NCBI GenBank assembly: GCA_942493095.1
Contig: OW818675.1
Coordinates: forward strand, 2,430,001 to 2,462,000
Source of the DNA: Candidatus Electronema halotolerans
GTDB lineage: Bacteria > Desulfobacterota > Desulfobulbia > Desulfobulbales > Desulfobulbaceae
DNA: 32,000 bases
Reading direction: 5' to 3'
Notes under the pieces: generated by a model
The model's database searches: none
What the model was told of the DNA's origin: nothing
What the model saw: only the letters and a program-made list of their open reading frames with translations
Shown here: positions 4,716 through 26,144 of the stretch, piece by piece
Layout: the number at the start of each line of letters is the position of its first letter
Numbering within the stretch: the first letter of the stretch is position 1
Position numbers and translations under genes: made by a program

Positions 4716-5289
4716 AATTAAGCCTCACTGGATTATTTGTAATTTTGATGATATATGCTGCAATATGGTGACGATTTTTTCTGTGGATGTCACTGTTGGA
4801 CAAAATCTGTTCGTATTTTTTTGTTGACATGCTTTCCTGACGGCTGATATCAACGAGGAAGCCCGCACTGCCTGCGAACGTGACCGGCCCGGCATCTATG
4901 ATGCCTATTATGTTCTTGATTTCTCGAAGCTGGAAGAAAATGTCCGTCAGGAACTGGCAGCGTGGCAGATTGATTGCCTTTCATGCGTGGCCGCACTTGG
5001 CTTCGGCGATATTCCGGCAAAAGCATTTGCCAATGCCTTTAATCTGGTTGCTCAATCCGGCTGGATCGCCTTCAACATCAAGGACACATTCCTGCTTGAG
5101 AGCGACAAATCAGGTCTCTCCAGCCTTATTAAGGCACTGCTCACCAGAGACACCTTGGAACTGCACCATTTGGAACGATACAGACATCGCATTTCCATCG
5201 ATGGTCGTTCCTTATTCTATTACACTGTCGTGGGGAGGAAAAAGACAGATATTCCTGACGCTATCATGAGTGATCTGGATCAGCTCTGA
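4693..5289 (+). pseudogene. Class I SAM-dependent methyltransferase-like gene, interrupted by an in-frame TGA (4825-4827) or 5'-truncated
   Basis: Frame 1 is open from 4636 to 5289 except for TGA at 4825-4827. Downstream of the stop it reads HAFLTADINEEARTACERDRPGIYDAYYVLDF...ALGFGDIP..., which looks like methyltransferase post-motif-I to C-terminus. Upstream of the stop it reads FSVDVTVGQNL where motif I (xLDxGxGxG) would be expected, so that motif is degenerate. There is no good start codon after the stop until GTG 4987. The 5' part is AT-rich. Confidence 0.45.
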
Positions 5290-5412
5290 ATGGCCCATGA
5301 GAGACGGCTGTCAATTATTGATCACTGCACTCAGCTGCATTTCTCTGCGCTCTGTTTGAAAAATAGGAATGCTTCAGCCCGGAGAAAGGCTCCGGGATGA
5401 TGCTGACAGAAC

Positions 5413-6477
5413 TCACTCTCCGTCTATCTCCGGCAGAGGGAAGAGATTCTTGTTGATCGCCTTTTCGCGGGCGGCGGCAACTGTGATCTTGTCCTCTTCA
5501 ATCATCTTTTGCAGGCACTGATCCATAGTCTGCATTCCTTGCGTCGTGCCGGTCTGAATCATCGACTCAATTTGATTGATCTTGCCTTCGCGGATGATGC
5601 TGGCCAACGCATTGGAGCCAAAGAGGATTTCCAAAGCGGCGCAGCGGCCCTTGCCGTCCTTGGTCTTGAGGAGCTGCTGGGCAATGACCGCCTTGAGCGA
5701 GTCAGCCAGCATGGTCCGGGTCTGAGCCTGCTCCTCAGCAGGAAAGGCGTTGATGATCCGGTCAATGGTCTTGGCCGCGCTGTTGGTGTGCAGGGTGCCG
5801 AAAACGAGAATGCCCAGCTCGGCGCAGGTCAGGGCGGCGGAGATGGTTTCCAAGTCGCGCATCTCGCCAACCAAGATCACATCCGGGTTTTCCCGGTTGG
5901 CAACCGACAAGGCCTTGGCAAAGCTCTTGGCATGACTGCCGATTTCCCGCTGTGAGAAAATGCACTGCTTGTTGGGATGAACAAACTCCAGCGGGTCTTC
6001 AATGGTGATGATGTGCTTGGGATGCTTATTGTTGATCAGATCAATGATCGCGGCCATAGTGGTTGACTTGCCGCTGCCGGTCGGGCCAGTGACCAACACC
6101 ATGCCCCGCACATAGTCGGCAACTCCGCGCACTGCGTCCGGCAGGCCGAGCTGATCCACTGTAAGTATTTTGCTGGGAATAATCCGAAACACCGCCCCAA
6201 TGCCCCGGTGCTGATAAAGGAAATTGCAGCGAAAGCGGCCCACGCCGTCCAAGGCGTAGGCTTTGTCAAAATCCCGGTTCTTCTCGATAATGGCCTGCTG
6301 ATCCGGGTCAAGGATTTCAAAAAGAATTTTCTTGTTGCTCTCCGGGGTGAGGACTGGCTCGTCCAGCGGCACCAGTTCGCCGCGCAGACGCAGCAGGGGC
6401 GGAAAGCCGATCACCATGTGCAGGTCGCTGGCCCCGCGTTCTTTCATCTCTTTGAAATACGAATCAATATGTGGCAT
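5413..6477 (-). CDS. pilT: Type IV pilus retraction ATPase PilT, 354 aa
   Basis: Walker A GPTGSGKST is present. The N-terminus (ERGASDLHM...PLLRLRGEL) and length are PilT-type. A good SD (AAGGAGAGAG) lies upstream. Confidence 0.9.
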   Translation of the reverse strand: MPHIDSYFKEMKERGASDLHMVIGFPPLLRLRGELVPLDEPVLTPESNKKILFEILDPDQQAIIEKNRDFDKAYALDGVGRFRCNFLYQHRGIGAVFRIIPSKILTVDQLGLPDAVRGVADYVRGMVLVTGPTGSGKSTTMAAIIDLINNKHPKHIITIEDPLEFVHPNKQCIFSQREIGSHAKSFAKALSVANRENPDVILVGEMRDLETISAALTCAELGILVFGTLHTNSAAKTIDRIINAFPAEEQAQTRTMLADSLKAVIAQQLLKTKDGKGRCAALEILFGSNALASIIREGKINQIESMIQTGTTQGMQTMDQCLQKMIEEDKITVAAAREKAINKNLFPLPEIDGE

Positions 6478-6564
6478 ACTCTCTCCTTTGGCCCAGACTT
6501 TGGCTTTTCCGGCAGCGGATGATGGGAAGCGGATTTTTGACTCTTCTTTTTGTCTTACATCTTC

Positions 6565-8349
6565 TCAGGCAGGAAACAAAGCAAAATGTGGATGTTCCTG
6601 ATTCTCCGCCCCGCAGACCCCGCAGCGGCGGCAGCGTGAGGTCTCGCAGGGAGAGGTTCCTTCCGCCCGCAAGGCCTTGTCCAATTCATGGTGCAGATAT
6701 GCCTTGTTGATGCCCTGATCAAGCACGTCCCAGCAGAACAGCTCGTCCGCCGTTCTGGGCCGCACTGCATAGTGCCACGCGCTGAGGCCGTGCGCCTTCA
6801 TGGCCTGCTTGAAAGAATATTTTCCTGTGCCAATGTCCAAGAGCAGCGGCGCAATGCGGCGGTCAGCACGGGCAAACACCGCCTGCATCAGGACCGTGTC
6901 AGGCCGGTCTGCCCGGAGATGAAGGTTGTCCACATCAGCCAGCGCATTCTTCAGATACTTGATGCTTTGGTTCAGGCGCAGGAGGGCGGTCTTTTCGCTT
7001 TGCTCGCGCAGAGCCTCCTCCTCAGTCAGGCCGCCAAAGGACAGATACTGAAACGGTGTCCACGGCTTGGGGACAAAACTGTTGACTGAGAGCAGCAGTT
7101 CGCAAAGCCGTCCTTTTGCCCGACCAATGGGCAGAATGCGCTCCCGGATTTTCCGCACAAGCTGGACAAATTCATCCAGATCAGCACGGGTCTCGGTGGG
7201 CAGGCCGATCATGACATAGAGCTTGAGAGTGAAAATGCCTGCCTCAGTCAGGGCGGCGGCGGCATGCAGCAGGTCTTGTTCGGCCAAGCCTTTGTTGATC
7301 ACTTGGCGGAGCCGCTGCGAGCAGCCGTCCGGGGCTATGGCCACTGATTTCAGCTCGGAGCGGGCAAGCAGATCGAGCAGGCGTGGGGAAATGCGGTCAG
7401 CGCGGAGGGAGGAGAAAGATAAGGCGCAGCCGGTCTGGCTGAGAAAGGCGGCAATCTGCTCCAGCGTCTCTGGCGCGGCCATCTCCATGCCCAAGAGACC
7501 AGCCCGCTTCATCTCAGCAGGCCGCTGGGCCAGACCCGCGAGCACAGCATCTGCGTCCCAGAGGCGGGGCGGACGGTAGATGAATCCGGCTGCGCAAAAG
7601 CGGCAGCCCCGGCTGCAACCCCGGCCCAGCTCGGTCATGTGCATGTTGAGTTCCGCCTCTGGCGAATAGAGCGCGGAATGGGCCGCCTGACCGTTGGTCT
7701 GGACAAGGGCACGGCGCACCCGCTGCGGCAGCCCCGGCGCGGCAGTGATTGCCAGCAGCCTGCCGTCGTCATCATAACGAAAACTGTAGCCGCTCGGCAC
7801 ATAACATCCCGGAATGGTTGCCCCGATGCGGTGGAGCAGCTCCTGCCGGTCAATGTTTTCCGCCGCTGCCAGCAATTCAGGCAGCAGAGACGGCAGCACC
7901 GCCTCGGCCTCGCCAATCACCATCAGATCAGCAAAAGAGGCCAACGGCTCCGGGTTCATGAACACCGCTGCCCCGCCGAGAATGACCAAAGGACGACCCG
8001 GAGCTGCCGGGCCGTTGCGCTCGGCAGTGCATGGCGGCACCTGTCCGGCAGCCAGCATGGCCGCCAGTCGGGGATAATCCTGCTCAAAACTGATCGAGGC
8101 GAAGATCAGGGGGAAGTCAGCAAGAGGCCGGTCTGATTCGAGCGAGCGGAACCGCTCCTGGTGGCCCTGCGGATAGACAAAGCGTTCGCAGACGATTTCC
8201 TCCCAGTTGTTCAGCAGGCGGTAAACAAGCTGAAAACCGAGATTGGAGACTGCCAAGGGGTAGGTGTTGGGATAGAGCAGGGCCGCAGGCAGGCGGCCCT
8301 TCCATTTTTTGCGGACTGTGCCGGTCTCCGCAGCAAGCAGGGGGTGCAA
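6565..8349 (-). CDS. B12-binding-domain radical SAM protein (uncharacterised TIGR03960-like family), 594 aa
   Basis: The CxxxCxxC cluster motif is present (CSRGCRFCAAG). The N-terminal region is typical of B12-binding radical SAM enzymes. The apparent TTG start lies 9 nt downstream of the ftsZ stop. Confidence 0.8.
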   Translation of the reverse strand: MHPLLAAETGTVRKKWKGRLPAALLYPNTYPLAVSNLGFQLVYRLLNNWEEIVCERFVYPQGHQERFRSLESDRPLADFPLIFASISFEQDYPRLAAMLAAGQVPPCTAERNGPAAPGRPLVILGGAAVFMNPEPLASFADLMVIGEAEAVLPSLLPELLAAAENIDRQELLHRIGATIPGCYVPSGYSFRYDDDGRLLAITAAPGLPQRVRRALVQTNGQAAHSALYSPEAELNMHMTELGRGCSRGCRFCAAGFIYRPPRLWDADAVLAGLAQRPAEMKRAGLLGMEMAAPETLEQIAAFLSQTGCALSFSSLRADRISPRLLDLLARSELKSVAIAPDGCSQRLRQVINKGLAEQDLLHAAAALTEAGIFTLKLYVMIGLPTETRADLDEFVQLVRKIRERILPIGRAKGRLCELLLSVNSFVPKPWTPFQYLSFGGLTEEEALREQSEKTALLRLNQSIKYLKNALADVDNLHLRADRPDTVLMQAVFARADRRIAPLLLDIGTGKYSFKQAMKAHGLSAWHYAVRPRTADELFCWDVLDQGINKAYLHHELDKALRAEGTSPCETSRCRRCGVCGAENQEHPHFALFPA

Positions 8350-18599: not shown

Positions 18600-21524
18600 C
18601 TACAGCTCCATCACTTCATCAAAGAGCTTGGCTGCGGCCCTGAGCTTGTCGCTGCTGCCAATGCTGGCCCGCACCGCCTCTGTCCTCAGTCGCTCCAGGG
18701 CTGGGGCAAAGCTGCGCAGGTCATTGGCTTCAGCATCCAGCACCTGCTCAATGATCTGCTGCCGCCGCTCCGGCGTGATGCCGCAGAGATAGGCATCACG
18801 GGCCTTGGCTCCCTCAGCAGCAGGCGAGCGCAGGGAATTGAGGCTGCCATAGGTGCCGATGATGAGCTGGTCCAGCTTGGTCCGGCTCAAGTCCAGCTTG
18901 CTCACCGCAGCGGCAATGGCCTCATAAGCACTGTAGGTTTTCTCCACCTGCGGGTCGCGGTAGCTGATGACAGCCAGATTGCCGGAGACCGGATGAAACT
19001 GGACAAAGCAGCCATAAGCTCCGCCGAGCTGCCGCACTGTGTTCCAGAGGTAATCCCGTGACAGCCAGGTCTTGAGCACCTCAAACGCGCCGTTATGCTG
19101 GCTGGGATCAGGGAACAGCTTGCAGCCCTGCACGTTATAGGCCACCTCTGCTGAGGTGGTGAAGGCCTGCCGCAGCGGCAGGACGGGAAAGTCCATTGCC
19201 CCTGCCTGCGGGGCAGTGCCGGGCAGACTGCTTTGCAGTGCAGCGGCCCGGTCTTTGATGGCCGCAATATCCGCTGCCGAGCCGGTCATGGCGATCTTGA
19301 GGCCCGCAGGCTGGAAGAGTGCCCGGCGCAGGCTCTCCAGCTTGCTGAGGAAGTCCTCCTCCAGCGCATCATAGTCCGATGCCAGGGCCTTGAGCGTCAG
19401 ATAGGCGGTCGTGCCGTTGACATGCTCATTGATCATCCCTGCCGGACTGAGCTGGGCAAAGACCCGGCTGGCGGCTAACTGCCAGCCCTCGCTCTGCACT
19501 GCGTGCTCGGCCCAGGTGAATTCGCGCAGGACAATCTCCTTGATCCGCTGCCGGTTGTTCAAGTCCAGCTCGGCCAGCACCTCCTGCACCAAGTCAAGCG
19601 CATCCGGCAGATACCCGGACAGAGCCTTGGTTTGCAGCCAGAGCAGCGGCAGCGGTTTTTGCGTGTCGCTGACATGGGTGTAGGCGGTGAAGGCATGGCT
19701 GAGGCCGCCGGTGCAGATATGGATGTCCTTGGCAAAGCGGATGTAGTCGCGCTGCGTGGTGCCGATCTCGGTGGCAATGGTGGCGAAGAGATCAAGATAG
19801 GGCAGCAGGTCCGGGCTGATCTGGGCGCAGTCGAGGCCGAACTGCACGTAGGCGATGCCGTTGCAGTCCAATTCGCTGCTGATGCACTCTGCCGAGCCGC
19901 ACTGCTCGGCAACTGCGCTGGGCTGCGGCGGCCTGCGCTCCAAGTCAGCGCGGGCCAGCTTGGGCAGCAGGGCCAAGGACTCCTCGCTGTTCGGAGTCTG
20001 CTGGAGGCGCATCAGCTCCTGGGTGTCAGCAATCAGCTGGTCAATCTGGGCCTGATCAAGCGTCTGCTTGTATGCGGCCAGCCGCTCCTGCTCGGCCTGG
20101 GCCTGCCAGGCCGCCTTGTCCGGGTCAGGCCGGAGGGTGACAGCGGCAAAGGCCGGGCTGTCCAGCAGCTTCTCCCTGATGAGCTGCTCGAAATAGCCTT
20201 CCTCCAAGGCCTTGCGGCGGATGGAGGCGAACAGCTCGTCGATCTTGAGGGCGGCAAAAGGGTCTGCGCCATGCTGCAAGGCGGGCAGAGCCTTGCTGAT
20301 CAGCTCCAAGCCGCATTGAGCGCGGGTCAGTTCCTCGCGCACCGAAAACTCATAACTGTTCAGCTCGGACAGCACCAAGTCGCGGTCAAGGCCCTGCTCG
20401 ACAATCTGAGTCAGCACGTGGCGGCAGAGGGCAAGGAAGTCGTCGCGCTTGTCCGCATCCGAGCCGACCAAGTAGGTCAGCATCACGGTCTGGACGCAGT
20501 GATCAGCAATGAACATGCCGCCAAAGTCCTTGCCCAAGCCCGCCTCAACCACGGCCTGCTTCAGGGGCGAGGCATCCGAGTTGTAGAGGATGTTGGCAAT
20601 CACCTGAAAGGCGGTGGTCAGCTCGCGGTCAAGCAGGGTGGCAACAGGCGAGGCCACAGCCAGATAGGTCTTGCCTGCCAGCGTGCTGCCTGGCTGGACC
20701 GCATAGCTGTCCTCAACAAAGACCGGCCCGCTGATGCCGCTGCCCTGAACAATCTCGGCCCGCTGGCCCGCGCTCTTGTAGTGGCAGAGGAACTTGTCCT
20801 GCACAGCGGCCAGCTCCTCGTCCAAGTCGGCATCGCCATAGAAGAAGAGCATCCCGTTCGAGGGGTGATAGTGCTTCTGGTGGAAGGCGACAAACTGCTC
20901 GTAGGTCAGGTCAGGAATGCAGGCCGGATCGCCGCCTGACTCGTGCGCGTAGGTGGATTCGGGCATCAATCCTTGGAAGCTGCGCTGGAACATGATGCGG
21001 ATCGGATCGCTCCACGCGCCCTTCATCTCATTGAAGACCACGCCTTGAAACTGAAGCGGCGCGTCCTTGCTCTCCTTGTGATAATGCCAGCCTTCCTGGG
21101 CAAAGGTGCTGCGCGGGATGAGCGGATTGAGGACCACGTCGCAATAGACATCCATGATGCTGAAATACTCGCTCAGGTTGCGGGTGGCGAAAGGGTACCA
21201 CGTGGTGTCCGCGCCGGTCATGGCATTGAGGAAGGTGGTCAGGCCGCCCTTGAGCACCTCGCCGAACACGTCATGGACTGGATACTTCTTCGACCCCATC
21301 AGCACCGCATGTTCAAGGATGTGCGCCACGCCCGTGGAATCGGTCGGCACAGTCTGGAAGGCGAAGCAGAAGGTCTTGTTCGGATCGCTGTTCTTGATCG
21401 CCAAGGCCGGAGTGCCGAGCACCTGATGCTCGAACATAAGCACGTCCGCATTGATGTCAGCGACATGCTCCGTGCGCCGGAGGATGAAGCCGTGATGAAC
21501 AGAGCCGATAGTGAAGTCAGTCAT
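18600..21524 (-). CDS. M16C (PreP-like) insulinase-family zinc metallopeptidase, 974 aa from ATG 21524
   Basis: The inverted zinc motif HxxEH is present (GVAHILEHAVLMG). The ~975-aa length is typical of PreP/M16C enzymes. The ORF-track version (to 21998) adds 158 residues that run through a DNA repeat array, and I treat that extension as non-coding. Confidence 0.85.
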   Translation of the reverse strand: MTDFTIGSVHHGFILRRTEHVADINADVLMFEHQVLGTPALAIKNSDPNKTFCFAFQTVPTDSTGVAHILEHAVLMGSKKYPVHDVFGEVLKGGLTTFLNAMTGADTTWYPFATRNLSEYFSIMDVYCDVVLNPLIPRSTFAQEGWHYHKESKDAPLQFQGVVFNEMKGAWSDPIRIMFQRSFQGLMPESTYAHESGGDPACIPDLTYEQFVAFHQKHYHPSNGMLFFYGDADLDEELAAVQDKFLCHYKSAGQRAEIVQGSGISGPVFVEDSYAVQPGSTLAGKTYLAVASPVATLLDRELTTAFQVIANILYNSDASPLKQAVVEAGLGKDFGGMFIADHCVQTVMLTYLVGSDADKRDDFLALCRHVLTQIVEQGLDRDLVLSELNSYEFSVREELTRAQCGLELISKALPALQHGADPFAALKIDELFASIRRKALEEGYFEQLIREKLLDSPAFAAVTLRPDPDKAAWQAQAEQERLAAYKQTLDQAQIDQLIADTQELMRLQQTPNSEESLALLPKLARADLERRPPQPSAVAEQCGSAECISSELDCNGIAYVQFGLDCAQISPDLLPYLDLFATIATEIGTTQRDYIRFAKDIHICTGGLSHAFTAYTHVSDTQKPLPLLWLQTKALSGYLPDALDLVQEVLAELDLNNRQRIKEIVLREFTWAEHAVQSEGWQLAASRVFAQLSPAGMINEHVNGTTAYLTLKALASDYDALEEDFLSKLESLRRALFQPAGLKIAMTGSAADIAAIKDRAAALQSSLPGTAPQAGAMDFPVLPLRQAFTTSAEVAYNVQGCKLFPDPSQHNGAFEVLKTWLSRDYLWNTVRQLGGAYGCFVQFHPVSGNLAVISYRDPQVEKTYSAYEAIAAAVSKLDLSRTKLDQLIIGTYGSLNSLRSPAAEGAKARDAYLCGITPERRQQIIEQVLDAEANDLRSFAPALERLRTEAVRASIGSSDKLRAAAKLFDEVMEL

Positions 21525-21785
21525 GAAGAAGCGGTGTGGTTGAAGTTCAGGGAATCTGCGGGCGCAGGCCGGACTGACCCGCCCTGCCAAGTCCGCAGAC
21601 GGCAGCAGTCCGCATCCTATTGTTCTAAAGATTGGTCTGAAAATCAAGAAGAATAGTTGGCGCGCAGAATTGCGCCTGCCCTGATGGCAGCTGACATCTT
21701 CCATCCCTTGCACTGGGTCGCCACCAACCTCGTTGCGGATGGCAAGGGCGGTCGCCAGCACGGCCAGCTTACGGAACATCACCAA

Positions 21786-21923
21786 AAGCACTCCAGTGCA
21801 ATTCATAGTTGCACGGGAGAAGTATTCACCATTGCACGAGAGAGGTACGCGCCATTGCACTCTCGTGCAATCCATCGTTGCACGGGAGAAGTATCTGCCG
21901 TCGCACGGGAGTGCAATCACCAT
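21786..21923. repeat. Tandem 2 x 69-bp repeat built from six 23-bp phased units that start with TTGCAC-like hexamers
   Basis: Units start at 21786, 21809, 21832, 21855, 21878 and 21901. The 30-nt cores 21796-21825 and 21865-21894 match at 28/30. GTGCAA-N7-TTGCAC dyads lie at 21796-21814 and 21865-21883. A 12-bp inverted repeat lies at 21831-21842 / 21860-21871. Confidence 0.9.
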
Positions 21924-21980
21924 GCTTGCGTCCGCAGTCCAGCTTATTGCATTTTTCAGCCCGGATGCGTCATATTTTTC

Positions 21981-22009
21981 TTGACAGGCATATCGCACCG
22001 TCGTATTTT
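21981..22009 (+). promoter_or_regulatory. Sigma70-type promoter candidate: TTGACA, 17-nt spacer, TATTTT
   Basis: A consensus -35 (21981-21986), an exact 17-nt spacer and a -10 of TATTTT (22004-22009) sit ~58 nt upstream of ATG 22067. That start is preceded by the SD AGGAGA (22055-22060). Confidence 0.55.
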
Positions 22010-22066
22010 GCCAGAAGCAGCAGTGTCCAACCTCGCTTACCCCGCCTTTTTCACAGGAGAATCATC

Positions 22067-23140
22067 ATGGCCACTCTTCAATGGCGACCAGCAGTCAACG
22101 CGCTCACTAAACCTGTTTCCTACCGTATCCAGATCATTCCCCGAAACATCGCGGGCTATGAGGAAATGGCCGCTGATATCTCCGCTGCGAATCCCAATTA
22201 CAACGCTGATCTGGTGCGCTCGCTCGCCCCGCTGATCATGGAGTGGATTCAGGACAGGATGATCAACGGCGATCAGGTCACTCTGCCCGATGCCTTTATC
22301 TTCCGCGTCTCGGCCCAAGGGCGGCTGGACAGCCCTGACGCGCCCCTGCCCGATGACGAAAATATGCTCCAGGTGAGCGTCAGCGGCACCCGTGCCTGCA
22401 CGGGCAGACTGCGGGCGGAAGGCCGGATGGAACGCCAGCCCATGAATGAAAAACTCCCGCATATCAACTCGGCTGAAGACACCAAGCTCAAGCTGGCTGA
22501 CGTGCTCAATCCGGCTGGTCTCCTCCATCTGATGGGCAGCAATCTCTATTTTGAAGAAGATGACCCGCATTCCAGTTGCGTGATTCAGGGCACGGAGAGC
22601 GGCGAGACCAAGCAGAGCACCTTTGGCGTGCTCTCCAATTCCGAGATTCTGCTTGCGCCTGACATCCCGGCCCAAGCAAACCCTTGGAACAACGAGTATT
22701 CAATTAGCCTGACCACGCATTATACAGAACATGGCACGCCGCGCACCGGCACCTATCAGCGCAGACTGCGCAGCCCGCTGGCAGTTCCGAATATGGGACA
22801 TCCGAATCCGCCCGAAACCGGCATCCTGACCGGCAGCGCGGCTGCGCCGTATGTCGTGATCAATGGTGGCTCGGTCTCAGCGGATGAACGCCTGCGCATT
22901 CAGGTGATTCAGGACTTGGTCGAGGAGCAGCTCCTTTTCTCGCTCATTGATATGAAAGAGGAGGGTGCGAGCGGTGCGGAAATCCCAGTGACCCAGAACG
23001 GGACATACAGCCTGCCGGGTTTCACTGGCTCCGCCGTGAGTTCGCTGGAAATCAGCGTGAATGAGTATGCCGCCCTCTGGGAGATGCTCCGCAATAACTA
23101 TAACGGCAGACTGGTGGATGTGCTGGATGTGGTGGTGTAG
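22067..23140 (+). CDS. Putative DNA-binding protein: HU-like (HU_HIG-type) N-terminal domain, DUF4469-like Ig-fold domain and an unassigned C-terminal region, 357 aa
   Basis: Strong SD plus ATG. The N-terminus (YRIQIIPRNIAGYEEMAADIS...LVRSLAPLIMEWIQDRMINGDQVTLPDAFIFRVS) fits the pattern I recall for HU_HIG proteins. The middle region (LPHINSAED...LMGSNLYFEEDDP...SNSEILLAPDIP...YSISLTT) fits the DUF4469 pattern. Family assignment is from memory, not from a search. Confidence 0.55.
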   Translation: MATLQWRPAVNALTKPVSYRIQIIPRNIAGYEEMAADISAANPNYNADLVRSLAPLIMEWIQDRMINGDQVTLPDAFIFRVSAQGRLDSPDAPLPDDENMLQVSVSGTRACTGRLRAEGRMERQPMNEKLPHINSAEDTKLKLADVLNPAGLLHLMGSNLYFEEDDPHSSCVIQGTESGETKQSTFGVLSNSEILLAPDIPAQANPWNNEYSISLTTHYTEHGTPRTGTYQRRLRSPLAVPNMGHPNPPETGILTGSAAAPYVVINGGSVSADERLRIQVIQDLVEEQLLFSLIDMKEEGASGAEIPVTQNGTYSLPGFTGSAVSSLEISVNEYAALWEMLRNNYNGRLVDVLDVVV

Positions 23141-23288: not shown

Positions 23289-24230
23289 ATGAAAAATAGC
23301 ATAATACGTTTTGTGTGTACAATTTTTGTATTATCATTTTATTTTTTTAATATAACATACGCTCAAGCTAAAATAGGCGGGTACTGTGGAAATTGCGAGA
23401 AGGAAAAACAGGAACTTAGCGATGCTCAGGGATTACTATCATTAGCGCAGGAAACATTATCGACAGCGAATGAAAACCTTAGTTCTGCGAGTGATAAGTA
23501 TTCAACTGCCGAAGGATTGCTTGAGTTTGCGAAGCAAGCTAAAGAGAGAGCTGAAGCATTATTAAATAATGCAAAACAAGCAGTTGCTGAAGCAAAGGAT
23601 GCCATATTAAGCCTGAAGGATGAAATAACAGCCCTTCGTCTATCTCTTATGCAGGCGACTGCATATTGGGCTTATCTTCAGATACAAGCAACCATAATTC
23701 TTAAAGAAGCAGCCCTCAGTGCAGCAGAACTACTTCTTCCCCCCTTGATAGCCGCCGCCGCCACAGCAGCAATTGTTTGGTTCGACGCAAAACAAGCAAT
23801 TCCACCATTAAAAGATCAAGTGACAGTTGCTAAGGATGATTATGAGAAGGCTTTAGAAAAATGGAGGCTTGCATCAAAGGATGTTAGAGATAAAACTAAG
23901 AATGTTGAGGTTAAAAAGAATAGTTTAGACAAATGTCTTGCAAGCCGAGTGACACCCGCTCAATGTGAGAAATGCGAAAACAATAAAATTGCAGCCAATG
24001 ACTCTGAAGACCCTGGAATGTGCAAAAAATGTCAGAACGGAGCTGTAGTAAACGATAACTCGGAAGACCCCGGAATATGCAAAAAATGTCAAGGAGGAAG
24101 TGCGGTAACTGACTATTCAGAATCTTGTAATGATTTTGATCCATGCACAGAAGGTGATCATTGCACTGATGACGGATGCGCAGGAACTCCTATCGAAAAT
24201 CCATCCCCCAGTTCTCCAGAATGCCAGTAA
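23289..24230 (+). CDS. Secreted coiled-coil protein with a central hydrophobic segment and a C-terminal tandem Cys-rich repeat region, 313 aa, of unknown function
   Basis: SD GAGAGG lies 8 nt upstream of the ATG. A signal-peptide-like N-terminus has an AQA-K cleavage motif. Long Ala/Glu/Lys/Leu-rich helical stretches are present, plus a hydrophobic segment LLLPPLIAAAATAAIVWF. There are three CxKCxN...SEDPG repeats followed by DPCTEGDHCTDDGCAG. The DNA is strikingly AT-rich relative to its neighbours. Confidence 0.75.
   Translation: MKNSIIRFVCTIFVLSFYFFNITYAQAKIGGYCGNCEKEKQELSDAQGLLSLAQETLSTANENLSSASDKYSTAEGLLEFAKQAKERAEALLNNAKQAVAEAKDAILSLKDEITALRLSLMQATAYWAYLQIQATIILKEAALSAAELLLPPLIAAAATAAIVWFDAKQAIPPLKDQVTVAKDDYEKALEKWRLASKDVRDKTKNVEVKKNSLDKCLASRVTPAQCEKCENNKIAANDSEDPGMCKKCQNGAVVNDNSEDPGICKKCQGGSAVTDYSESCNDFDPCTEGDHCTDDGCAGTPIENPSPSSPECQ
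23964..24126 (+). repeat. Three in-frame tandem ~57-nt (19-aa) coding repeats (CxKC(Q/E)N-x7-9-SEDPG)
   Basis: Units 24006-24062 and 24063-24119 match at 27 of their first 29 nt. The preceding unit, starting at Cys codon 23964, is similar at the protein level (CEKCENNKIAANDSEDPG). Confidence 0.85.
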
Positions 24231-24280
24231 GTAGGCTAGGCAAATAGCTGTATCGTTTGCCCAAGTAAGCTGACATAATT

Positions 24281-24310
24281 GGCGGGCAAGCAAAAAGTTG
24301 CTTGCCCGCC
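24281..24310. terminator. Hairpin between convergent genes; candidate bidirectional terminator
   Basis: A perfect 13-bp stem (GGCGGGCAAGCAA / TTGCTTGCCCGCC) with an AAAG loop lies between the stop of the 23289-24230 gene and the stop of edd (24342). No clear U-tract follows on either strand. Confidence 0.55.
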
Positions 24311-24341
24311 CTACGGTGTTGAGCGAAGTCGAAAGGCACCA

Positions 24342-26144
24342 TTACAGCACCGCGCTTGCTCCTTCCTCAGCCCCAGACAACACCCTCCGCAAGGCGGCAA
24401 ACATTCCATGTCCCGGCTCGGCAGACTCCGGCGGCGGCAGGGCGGCCTGTCGCTGCGCCAGCGTCGCTTCATCCACCTGCAATTGCAACGCAGAGCTGCG
24501 GGCATCCATGCGGATGATGTCGCCAGTCTGCACCTTGGCAATCAGTCCGCCTGCCAATGCCTCTGGCGTGCAGTGAATGGCAAAGGGCACCTTGCCTGAC
24601 GCGCCCGACAGCCGCCCGTCCGTGACCAATCCAACCTTGTAGCCCTGCTCCATCAGCACGGCTAACGGCGTGAGCAGCTTGTGCAGCTCTGGCATGCCGT
24701 TGGCTCGCGGCCCTTGAAAGCGGACAACCGCAATCAGGTCGCGGTTCATCTGCCCAGCCTTGAAAGCCTGCTCCAGCTCGTGCTGGCTGCTGAAAACCAT
24801 CGCCGGAGCTTCAACGCAGGTGTTCTCGCCGTCAGCCAAGGCGGAAATCTTCATGATTGCCCGGCCTAAGTTGCCGGACAGCAGCTTGATGCCGCTGACC
24901 GGGGCAAAGGGCTTGTTCAGCGTGGCGATGATGGACAGGTCACGGCTCTGCTCCGGCCCAGACTGCCAGACTGCTTTGTCCTTTGCCAGAACAGGCTTTT
25001 CCATATACCTGCTGAAGCCCGGCCCAGCCACAGTCTGCACATCCTCATGCAAAAAGCCGCCAGCCAGCAGCTCGCGGATGAGCAGGGCCATGCCGCCTGC
25101 CTGCTGGAACGAATTGATGTCGCCTGCGCCGTTGGGATAAATGCGCACCAAGAGCGGCACGGCTGCGGACAGCTCGGCAAAGTCGTCCCAGTCAATCAGG
25201 ATTCCGGCAGCCTTGGCAATGGCCACCAAGTGCATGGTCTCATTGGTTGACCCGCCCGTGGCGAGCAGGCCGACCATTGCGTTGACCACCGCCTTTTCAC
25301 TGATCACCTCGGCCAGCGGCGTGTATTCGCTGCCAAGATGAGTGATAGCAGTAACCCGGCGGGCCGCAGCCTTGGTCAGCTCCTCGCGCAAGGGCGTATC
25401 CGCATTGACAAAGGACGCGCCCGGCAGATGCACGCCCAGCATCTCGGCCATGAGCTGGTTGGAATTGGCGGTGCCGTAAAAGGTGCAGGTGCCGGGGCTG
25501 TGGTAGGCCCGCAGCTCCGAGGCCAGCAGCCCGTCCTTGCCGATCTCACCCTTGGCAAAGCGTTCGCGGATCAGATTCTTTTCCCGGTTGCCGATGCCGG
25601 AGGACATGGGGCCAGCAGGCACGAGCAGCATGGGCAGGTGGCCGTATTGCAGGCCGCCCATGAGCAGGCCGGGCATGATCTTGTCGCAGACACCGAGCAG
25701 CAGTGCGCCGTCAAAGACATTGTGCGACAGGGCGATGACCACAGCAAGGGCGATCACGTCCCGGCTCATCAGGCTCAAATCCATGCCCGGCTCGCCTTGG
25801 GTGATGCCGTCGCACATGGCAGGCACGCCGCCTGCAAACTGGGCTGTGCCGCCCGCCTCTGCCACGGCCTGCTTGATCAGCTCAGGATAGCGGCCCAGCG
25901 GCTGATGGGCGGAGACCAAGTCGTTGTAGGCGGAGATGATGGCGATGTTGGGCACCGAATCAGCAAGCAGGGCCGGACGGCAGGCCGGGCAGCCAGCAAG
26001 GTCGTGCGCCAAGTTGCTGCACGGCAGCGTTTTGCGGAACGGCCCTTTGCTTTTGGCCGCCGCCATTCGCGACAAATACGCGGCGCGGCTGGCTGCGCTG
26101 CGCTCAATAATCCGACGGGTGACGTGTTCAACAGTTGCGTTCAT
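24342..26144 (-). CDS. edd: Phosphogluconate dehydratase (Entner-Doudoroff), 600 aa
   Basis: Collinear, high similarity to E. coli Edd as I recall it. Shared stretches include RIIERS, AGGVPAMCDGITQG, PGTCTFYGTANSNQ, LLATGGSTNETMHLVA and TDGRLSGASGKVP. Confidence 0.92.
   Translation of the reverse strand: MNATVEHVTRRIIERSAASRAAYLSRMAAAKSKGPFRKTLPCSNLAHDLAGCPACRPALLADSVPNIAIISAYNDLVSAHQPLGRYPELIKQAVAEAGGTAQFAGGVPAMCDGITQGEPGMDLSLMSRDVIALAVVIALSHNVFDGALLLGVCDKIMPGLLMGGLQYGHLPMLLVPAGPMSSGIGNREKNLIRERFAKGEIGKDGLLASELRAYHSPGTCTFYGTANSNQLMAEMLGVHLPGASFVNADTPLREELTKAAARRVTAITHLGSEYTPLAEVISEKAVVNAMVGLLATGGSTNETMHLVAIAKAAGILIDWDDFAELSAAVPLLVRIYPNGAGDINSFQQAGGMALLIRELLAGGFLHEDVQTVAGPGFSRYMEKPVLAKDKAVWQSGPEQSRDLSIIATLNKPFAPVSGIKLLSGNLGRAIMKISALADGENTCVEAPAMVFSSQHELEQAFKAGQMNRDLIAVVRFQGPRANGMPELHKLLTPLAVLMEQGYKVGLVTDGRLSGASGKVPFAIHCTPEALAGGLIAKVQTGDIIRMDARSSALQLQVDEATLAQRQAALPPPESAEPGHGMFAALRRVLSGAEEGASAVL

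Follow-up and report, generated by a model that had tools for sequence, protein, structure and literature searches.

In the genome of the cable bacterium Candidatus Electronema halotolerans (Desulfobulbaceae; GCA_942493095.1), an array of six contiguous 23-bp units (21786-21923) lies upstream of a gene encoding a 357-amino acid (aa) protein of the HU-HIG/DUF4469 family (22067-23140, plus strand). All positions refer to the 32,000-nucleotide (nt) stretch analyzed here, hereafter the window, which corresponds to positions 2,430,001-2,462,000 of contig OW818675.1. Arrays of the same pitch and of unrelated sequence accompany most HU-HIG paralogues of cable bacteria and were found beside distant homologs in Bacteroides as well. 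The explanation that we favor, with moderate confidence, is that the array is a private, cognate multi-dimer binding array of the adjacent HU-HIG protein, which in cable bacteria would be wired to the gene's own promoter and would probably be autoregulatory. The case for this candidate operator array of an autoregulated protein is indirect and draws on co-inheritance, paralogue-specific sequence, dyads, a phase-lock to the promoter, and linkage in two phyla; from the sequences, we infer which protein binds and in which direction transcription would respond.

A phased array of dyad-bearing units upstream of an HU-HIG gene

The units start at 21786 (U1), 21809 (U2), 21832 (U3), 21855 (U4), 21878 (U5), and 21901 (U6) and open with the hexamers AAGCAC (U1), TTGCAC (U2 to U5), and TCGCAC (U6). 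Each consists of approximately 17 conserved bp and a variable linker of approximately 6 bp, and two unit types follow one another along the array in the order A B B A B A. Type A (U1, U4, and U6) is a TTGCAC-N4-GTGCAA palindrome, which is perfect in U4 (TTGCAC-TCTC-GTGCAA, 21855-21870, 0 mismatches) and weaker at 21786-21801 (2 mismatches) and 21901-21916 (1 mismatch). Type B, TTGCACGRGAGARGTAY, is represented by U2 (21809), U3 (21832), and U5 (21878); its core, TTGCACGGGAGAAGTAT, lies on the plus strand at 21809-21825 and again at 21878-21894, with the variant TTGCACGAGAGAGGTAC at 21832-21848, and the GAGAGAAGTA portion of this core is kept in orthologues.

The dyads of the window are TTGCAC-N4-GTGCAA, then GTGCAA-N7-TTGCAC, the latter being found twice in the array by a repeat finder. 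The same search recovered a 12-nt inverted repeat (21831-21842/21860-21871, 100% complementary) and a copy at an offset of 69 bp (82% over 55 nt), and Tandem Repeats Finder (TRF) independently detected a period of 23 at 21801-21860. A preliminary description of this stretch had reported the unit coordinates, two related 30-nt cores (21796-21825 and 21865-21894, with 2 mismatching positions), and superimposed dyads, all of which hold in the sequence. Its view of the array as two tandem 69-bp copies applies locally, in that units 1/4 and 2/5 pair well, whereas units 3/6 pair poorly and orthologues show an A/B alternation at 46 bp.

Within the window as a whole, TTGCAC/GTGCAA is less frequent than expected (14 copies versus 24.6 in shuffles), and 7 of the 14 copies are packed into the 121 bp from 21796 to 21916, where the surrounding GC content is 0.57. 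No second TTGCAC cluster was found in the window, and further copies of the motif that would point to a regulon are absent from it. Read from the sequence, a degenerate in-phase extension (21924-21980), which is kept among orthologues, carries the array as far as the promoter; it includes TTGCAT at 21947-21952, exactly 46 bp after the start of U6 at 21901 and in phase with the array. The array amounts to a row of approximately 6 to 8 in-register sites.

Two open reading frames (ORFs) cross the array, one on the minus strand (18600-21998) and one on the plus strand (21809-23140), and a coding explanation was considered but rejected. The minus-strand ORF encodes an M16C (PreP-like) peptidase, the first Pfam domain of which begins only at residue 219 of the longest ORF. 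From the in-frame ATG at 21524, the M16 domain begins approximately 32 residues later, giving a normal N-terminus, while translation of the segment from this ATG up to the GTG at 21998 yields meaningless sequence rich in Cys and Arg. Likewise, the start codon, ribosome-binding site, and length of the HU-HIG gene are conserved in 50 paralogues. The start codon of the peptidase is thus, in all probability, the minus-strand ATG at 21524-21522 and not the GTG at 21998, and the array region is intergenic. In public gene calls (18600-21998, minus strand; L155 and L156), the peptidase is lengthened to 1068 aa with an N-terminus overlapping the array (the longest ORF being 1132 aa), and we regard this automatic extension as an artifact.

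The downstream protein belongs to the Ig-fused HU-HIG subclade

The product of the gene at 22067-23140 is 100% identical to a Ca. Electronema halotolerans protein. Two further contigs encoding the identical protein have a sequence identical to the window, so that they show no strain difference in unit number. An AlphaFold2 model (mean predicted local distance difference test score of 84) opens with an N-terminal beta-hairpin, continues through two helices and beta-arms, and leads into beta-sandwich domains; along the chain, strands 2-11 and 18-24 come first, then helix 31-41 and, further on, helix 109-118 and strand 119-123, an order that agrees with the description of HU-HIG proteins by Burroughs et al. 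2017 (PMC5499826). The domain layout is accordingly an N-terminal beta-hairpin and HU fold (residues 1-125), a DUF4469 immunoglobulin (Ig)-like domain (approximately 130-235), and a further C-terminal beta-rich region.

In Foldseek searches, the whole protein matched 4FMR (Bacteroides vulgatus BVU_2165, E = 1e-12), and the N-domain matched HU, IHF, and Hbb (target-normalised template modeling score 0.63-0.80, probability 1.0), dimeric, two-fold symmetric DNA binders on which the modeled domain superposes. Among 40 family members, Pfam assigned DUF4469 to 38 (best E = 3e-9), HU-HIG to 23, and HU-DNA_bdg to 7; the window protein itself scores 19.0 bits against DUF4469, under the cutoff of 22.6 bits. 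Furthermore, a family profile matched 4FMR over residues 37-223 (E = 3e-4). The HU/IHF core fold, the C-terminal Ig-like domain, and the expansion of stand-alone, fast-diverging genes that mark the HU-HIG Ig subclade are all present, and the window protein is a member of this Ig-fused subclade of the HU-HIG clade (PF18291/PF14848 together with DUF4469, PF14734). The earlier designation of the gene as HU-like was thus correct by both Pfam and Foldseek.

With the HU-HIG proteins of Bacteroidota, represented by 4FMR, the window protein shares stand-alone genes without operon partners and many fast-diverging paralogues per genome, whereas it differs in its origin from Desulfobulbaceae, its length (approximately 90 residues longer), its extra C-terminal beta-rich domain, and its low sequence identity (18-19%). 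HU-HIG genes have been described as stand-alone and fast-diverging, without an assigned function, and as expanded to up to 22 copies in one Bacteroides genome (PMC5499826). Our profile search places 637 clusters at 50% identity in the HU-HIG/DUF4469 family. In the literature searched, no papers containing DUF4469 were found, PMC5499826 does not mention associated 23-bp arrays (the word 'repeats' occurs 0 times), and the cable-bacterium and Bacteroides literature searched yielded nothing on such repeats.

Arrays of identical pitch and unrelated sequence accompany cable-bacterium paralogues

A scan of cable bacteria with one genome per species, in which many loci lie at contig ends, yielded 70 HU-HIG loci in 13 genomes (2-13 per genome; 46-87% identity). 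When all loci were analyzed with TRF, a tandem array with a period of exactly 23 or 46 was detected in most paralogues, approximately 100-340 bp before the ATG and with 2-8 copies (TRF) or 3-10 units (our own delimitation). For the 59 loci with enough upstream DNA, we additionally determined the self-match by offset in the region from -400 to -90. The best self-match fell at an offset of 23 or 46 in 43 of these loci, and at least 40 of 69 positions matched at offset 23 in 38 of the 59, compared to 0.8% of 902 control segments.

The unit sequence differs in every paralogue, as illustrated by AGACACGCCCGTTACTCGCATCG (L009), TTAGGATTCTAAATCCCATTAGC (L029), and TTTTTCTTTTCCTCGCCCGAGGT (L025). Arrays of one genome share no repeated 9-mers, save for a near-duplicate pair (L031/L060, genome GS), and outside the arrays, the frequency of array k-mers in the sampled loci did not exceed chance. 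Among orthologues of the window gene, the arrays drift gradually, from TTGCAC through TTGTAC and TTGATC to TTGATA: TTGCAC/GTGCAA is kept at 23/46-bp spacing in L003, L004, L005, and L067, and graded motif variants (TTGATC, TTGATA, and TTGTAC) with differing unit numbers are found in L006, L001, and L051. L006, which contains six TTGATCGAGAGAAGTA units, also retains the 23/46-bp spacing. Loss of the phasing in orthologous loci had been named beforehand as an outcome that would speak against a protein-binding array. The opposite was observed, as 23-bp phasing is present in orthologues, in approximately 40 paralogues with unrelated units, and in distant Bacteroides homologs. This family-wide phasing supports the earlier proposal of an array that acts at the DNA level, has the appearance of a protein-binding site, and is tied to the neighboring HU-like gene.

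All-against-all clustering of 1029 ORFs from 71 loci revealed no conserved neighbor gene, with the exception of tetratricopeptide repeat (TPR) proteins in 6 loci. The genes for these TPR-type repeat proteins (DNA periods of 120-138 bp), the sole recurrent neighbor, adjoin HU-HIG paralogues, for example at 5035-6176 in L008, 496-1692 in L009, 2020-2535 in L029, and 905-1405 in L037.

A few paralogues that lack a proximal array have a more distant, orphan one, with a period of 23 bp and located 1.2-2.9 kb upstream (L023 794-906, L024 386-467, L034 85-177, L054 1739-1874, and L063 1780-1878). Array and gene are separated by unrelated minus-strand ORFs without Pfam matches in L023 (560 aa), L054 (258 aa), and L063 (248 aa), and by weak HU-HIG remnants in L024; the stretch from array to promoter may be a hot spot of insertion. 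Tandem arrays with a period of 21/42 bp, several kb downstream of the HU-HIG gene (L005 6415-6625 and L023 5134-5245; e.g., AGTTGTACTCGGCAGCAAAGG and AAAGGAGTCTGGCTCGGCAAC), are a different class of repeat.

The arrays are in register with the promoter of the HU-HIG gene

Downstream of the array, the window contains a predicted sigma-70-type promoter on the plus strand, TTGACA-17-TATTTT (21981-22009; -35 hexamer at 21981-21986, -10 hexamer at 22004-22009), confirming the near-consensus promoter of the preliminary description. It is followed by a conserved 5' leader of approximately 55 nt (22010-22066, plus strand) with the ribosome-binding site AGGAGAA at 22055-22061. The same arrangement of TTGACA, a TAnnnT -10 element, a leader of approximately 55 nt, and an AGGAGAA ribosome-binding site recurs in the paralogues, with TTGACA located at about -83 to -89 from the ATG in most and at about -91 to -106 in a few; in L013, this hexamer is absent.

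The arrays stop 0-3 units upstream of TTGACA, and the two inverted half-sites of each unit generate dyads every ~11.5 bp. Measured from the start of the -35 hexamer, the best dyad center of 24 of 39 loci is located 23n+1.5-4.5 bp upstream, and a second mode is found 11.5 bp away. This phase relative to the -35 hexamer is significant (Rayleigh p ~5e-6), also when one random representative was taken from each of 14 protein clusters (p of 0.003-0.007). Moreover, when the register was anchored on the promoter, the least conserved unit columns, i.e., the linker, coincided across 43 loci with unrelated motifs (permutation p <= 5e-5). In the window, 5x23+3.5 bp separate the center of the perfect palindrome (21862.5) from the downstream start of the -35 hexamer, and this hexamer itself takes the place that the second half-site would have in a virtual ninth unit.

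Two other readings of the promoter-proximal motifs were dropped. A sigma-54 promoter look-alike (TGGCAC-N5-TTGCA) lacks the GG, and other paralogues have unrelated motifs; clusters of -35-like TTGACA decoys would fit only the orthologue group of the window and not the other paralogues.

In Bacteroides, the array follows the gene

Starting from the sequence of 4FMR, we collected 84 Bacteroides-type DUF4469 loci (44 after dereplication) and analyzed 260 bp on each side of the gene. After the stop codon, the best self-match offset was 23 in 29 loci, 46 in 6, 22 in 3, and 45 in 2, amounting to 40 of the 44; in the 260 bp upstream of the 44 genes, it was never 23. As in cable bacteria, each locus has its own unit sequence with inverted half-sites (e.g., TCTATC-N8-GATAGA and TTGACTA-N4-TAGTCAA), and in some arrays (L110) A- and B-type units alternate. 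The position of the array differs between the groups, being directly downstream of the gene in Bacteroides and upstream in cable bacteria. The gene that follows the Bacteroides array is usually co-oriented and is unrelated between loci (SusC-like receptors, a sigma-54 response regulator, MatE, and GH84). Since these next genes vary and none is conserved in cable bacteria, the HU-HIG(Ig) gene is the sole constant neighbor of the 23-bp array in both phyla.

In gut metagenome contigs of this set (L075-L154), a conserved 'TTTTCAGGATAACA' element often stands after the array and before the next gene (seen in L075, L082, L100, and L110), possibly as a promoter or leader component common to these loci.

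A candidate cognate binding array and its alternatives

A strict pitch, dyads within the units, homogeneity within and divergence between arrays, linkage to one gene family, and register with a promoter are what is expected of a co-evolving row of binding sites. In the mechanism that we propose, a sequence-specific protein, most likely the HU-HIG gene product, would bind the units side by side, and the bound dimers would form a periodic nucleoprotein filament with a pitch of 23 bp; paired inverted half-sites in each 23-bp unit are what a two-fold symmetric dimer would be expected to require. The linkage across phyla makes the HU-HIG protein the most economical candidate for the binder. Autoregulation in cable bacteria is suggested by the register of the array with the gene's own consensus promoter: with the -35 hexamer in the next half-site slot, filling of the array could feed back on transcription, probably as concentration-dependent autorepression. 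Repression is favored because the promoter is near consensus, so that no activator would be needed, and because the next in-register position overlaps the -35 hexamer. Each paralogue would have evolved its own unit sequence, resulting in orthogonal protein-site pairs.

Several observations weigh against this interpretation. The window protein is acidic (pI 4.7), and its proline-rich, PDDPLPDDE-like HU arm even more so (pI 4.05); the median pI is 5.1 for the cable-bacterium paralogues and 5.05 for the Bacteroides proteins. The N-terminal 28 residues are the sole clearly basic part of the protein, and DNA contact, if any, may be made through a surface other than the clasp. As to candidate specificity determinants in the protein, per-block entropy shows only a modest excess of variability in the HU domain over the remainder, and a comparison of the window protein with L001 reveals just a handful of N-domain differences despite their different half-sites. 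About a quarter of the cable-bacterium paralogues are without a proximal array, and the predicted promoter of the window is a consensus match (10 of 12 positions). The downstream location of the array in Bacteroides means that autoregulation is not its universal role. Furthermore, the Ig domain of 4FMR occludes the HU clasp, and Ig-fused members were concluded to be unlikely DNA binders or sequence-specific factors (PMC5499826). The arrays argue against the inference that sequence-specific binding is absent, because each gene is linked to its own array of dyad sites.

The location in Bacteroides, after the gene and not at its promoter, also favors an account in which the binder is the same but its main role is another one, the link to the promoter being secondary: a self-addressed chromosomal complex that serves as a landmark or tether like ParB-parS, as a boundary, or as an iteron-like decoy or sensor directed against mobile elements. 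The conflict model of PMC5499826 is compatible with many orthogonal pairs per genome, fast divergence, and the lack of operon partners; the Ig-like domains hint at contacts between proteins, and period and copy number resemble those of iterons. We nevertheless consider this account unlikely, as the phase-lock to the -35 hexamer and the arrays that reach it argue for promoter coupling in cable bacteria, the array motifs have no further copies in the sampled sequence, and searches of plasmid, phage, PADLOC, PHROG, and NCBIfam libraries, defense systems included, returned no match for a conserved partner or a mobile context. A broader reading, in which an unrecognized class of orthogonal self-addressed protein-DNA modules common to Bacteroidota and cable bacteria is used beyond simple autoregulation, for example as iteron-like decoys or sensors intercepting the replication or integration proteins of plasmids or phages, or as chromosomal landmarks tethering defined loci via the Ig-like domains, is put forward tentatively as a possibility; if true, the HU-HIG/DUF4469 module class would provide tens of mutually exclusive addresses per genome.

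Alternatively, other, trans-encoded regulators could bind the arrays and the HU-HIG gene could be their target only. The acidity of the HU-HIG proteins and the occluded clasp of 4FMR would fit such a scenario, and the arrays lie upstream of the promoter like ordinary operator or activator sites. However, one dedicated regulator would be needed for each paralogue, i.e., up to 13 per genome, neighbor clustering found no regulator gene linked to the loci, the Bacteroides array stands after the HU-HIG gene and before genes that are unrelated, and the 23-bp pitch is identical in two phyla, which renders this scenario improbable. We attach still less weight, and regard as very improbable, that the array acts as a series of hairpins in structured RNA or in single-stranded or cruciform DNA. 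While the plus strand folds at -58.2 kcal/mol (z = -4.6), a dyad is present in every unit, and the array could fall within a transcript at some Bacteroides loci, the minus strand folds only weakly better than shuffles (z = -2.4), type-B units without a dyad are conserved, and the cable-bacterium array lies upstream of a conserved promoter and thus outside the mRNA of the gene. In addition, Rfam gave no match in the window or 18 related loci, and a fixed phase to the -35 hexamer is a property of double-stranded DNA.

Replication iterons and the ends of Tn7/Mu-type transposons, both of which had been suggested in the preliminary description, are, together with neutral replication slippage, barely credible explanations. 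A period of ~22-23 bp with 3-10 copies does resemble iterons and transposase sites, and the number of units varies among orthologues. Among the 70 loci, however, Rep, transposase, and recombinase genes are absent, and no partner arrays or transposase genes lie within +/-3 kb. Neither an inverted partner array with target-site duplications around a mobile unit nor autonomous replication of the fragment was seen. Neither a DnaA box nor an AT-rich region was found at the array; the nearest DnaA-box-like match in the window, at 23457, is downstream of the HU-HIG gene and ~1.5 kb from the array. The loci are chromosomal with 2-13 copies per genome, a tblastn search against plasmids gave no match, and no plasmid or phage relatives were found. 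Slippage, in turn, explains neither the promoter register nor why >80 loci from two phyla have an identical period although their sequences are unrelated.

Comparison with known systems

Arrays of cognate sites beside the gene of their binder are a known kind of arrangement (iterons, parC, omega, and operators), while their association with HU-HIG genes appears to be undescribed. In the ParR-parC systems of R1 and pSK41 and the omega heptad arrays of pSM19035, short tandem and inverted repeats adjoin or overlap the promoter of the gene encoding their own binder; dimers bind cooperatively and side by side and form a helical nucleoprotein filament, the promoter is autoregulated, and the repeat is system-specific. 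The cable-bacterium array is likewise found at the promoter of the candidate binder's gene. In contrast to parC and omega, the arrays described here are chromosomal and multi-copy and have 23-bp units (7-11 or 20 bp in those systems), the protein has an HU-like fold and not a ribbon-helix-helix, and a ParM/ParA-type NTPase partner is lacking, no such gene linked to the array having been found in the loci compared.

Plasmid iterons (R6K, RK2, and pPS10) consist of 3-8 replicon-specific repeats with a spacing of ~22-23 bp beside the gene of a cognate, autoregulating Rep protein. Iterons are direct repeats of 17-22 bp spaced by ~22 bp; the arrays described here have a period of 23 and 3-10 units, which contain inverted half-sites and are found in both orientations. 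The arrays are not on plasmids, and a Rep-family protein, a DnaA box, and an AT-rich unwinding element are all absent. IHF and Hbb, finally, the sequence-selective members of the HU family, are small, basic proteins with single sites of ~30-35 bp and are not known to be encoded beside arrays of their own sites; the window protein differs from them in being acidic with proline-rich acidic arms.

Array linkage in two distant phyla and the invariant 23-bp pitch point to specific, cooperative DNA recognition by the orphan HU-HIG/DUF4469 family and provide a first testable clue to the function of this large family. Since a candidate target sequence is supplied for every array-bearing paralogue, the family becomes testable, including in genetically tractable Bacteroides. 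For cable-bacterium genomes, the arrays reveal a previously unnoticed set of strongly promoted genes, each with its own address.

Flanking regions of the window locus

A rearrangement of the upstream flank coincides exactly with the distal border of the array (~21785): the neighbor on that side is the M16 peptidase in the window and an IlvD/Edd paralogue in Electronema JC. In Electronema JC, the cassette lies between two opposed IlvD/Edd-family genes (L004 813-2645, plus strand, and 4830-6632, minus strand; L067 853-2685, plus strand), one of which is the orthologue of the ilvD of the window, while the other, immediately upstream of the array, is a more divergent paralogue.

Downstream of the HU-HIG gene, a plus-strand gene at 23289-24230 stands out by a GC content of 43%, compared to ~58-60% in its flanks. 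Its 313-aa product has an N-terminus resembling a signal peptide, a long coiled coil with only weak SMC/LmuB-type matches, and a Cys-rich C-terminus with repeated CKKCQ motifs. The gene sits in a variable slot, as 0.4-1.9 kb of different DNA are found between the HU-HIG gene and the ilvD terminator in L001, L003, L004, and L005. A GC-rich hairpin, GGCGGGCAAGCAAAAAGTTGCTTGCCCGCC, at 24281-24311 lies between the convergent genes and probably terminates transcription in both directions, of ilvD (24342-26144, minus strand) as well as of the plus-strand genes. The segment spanning it (24226-24385) is 81-88% conserved in L001, L003, and L005.

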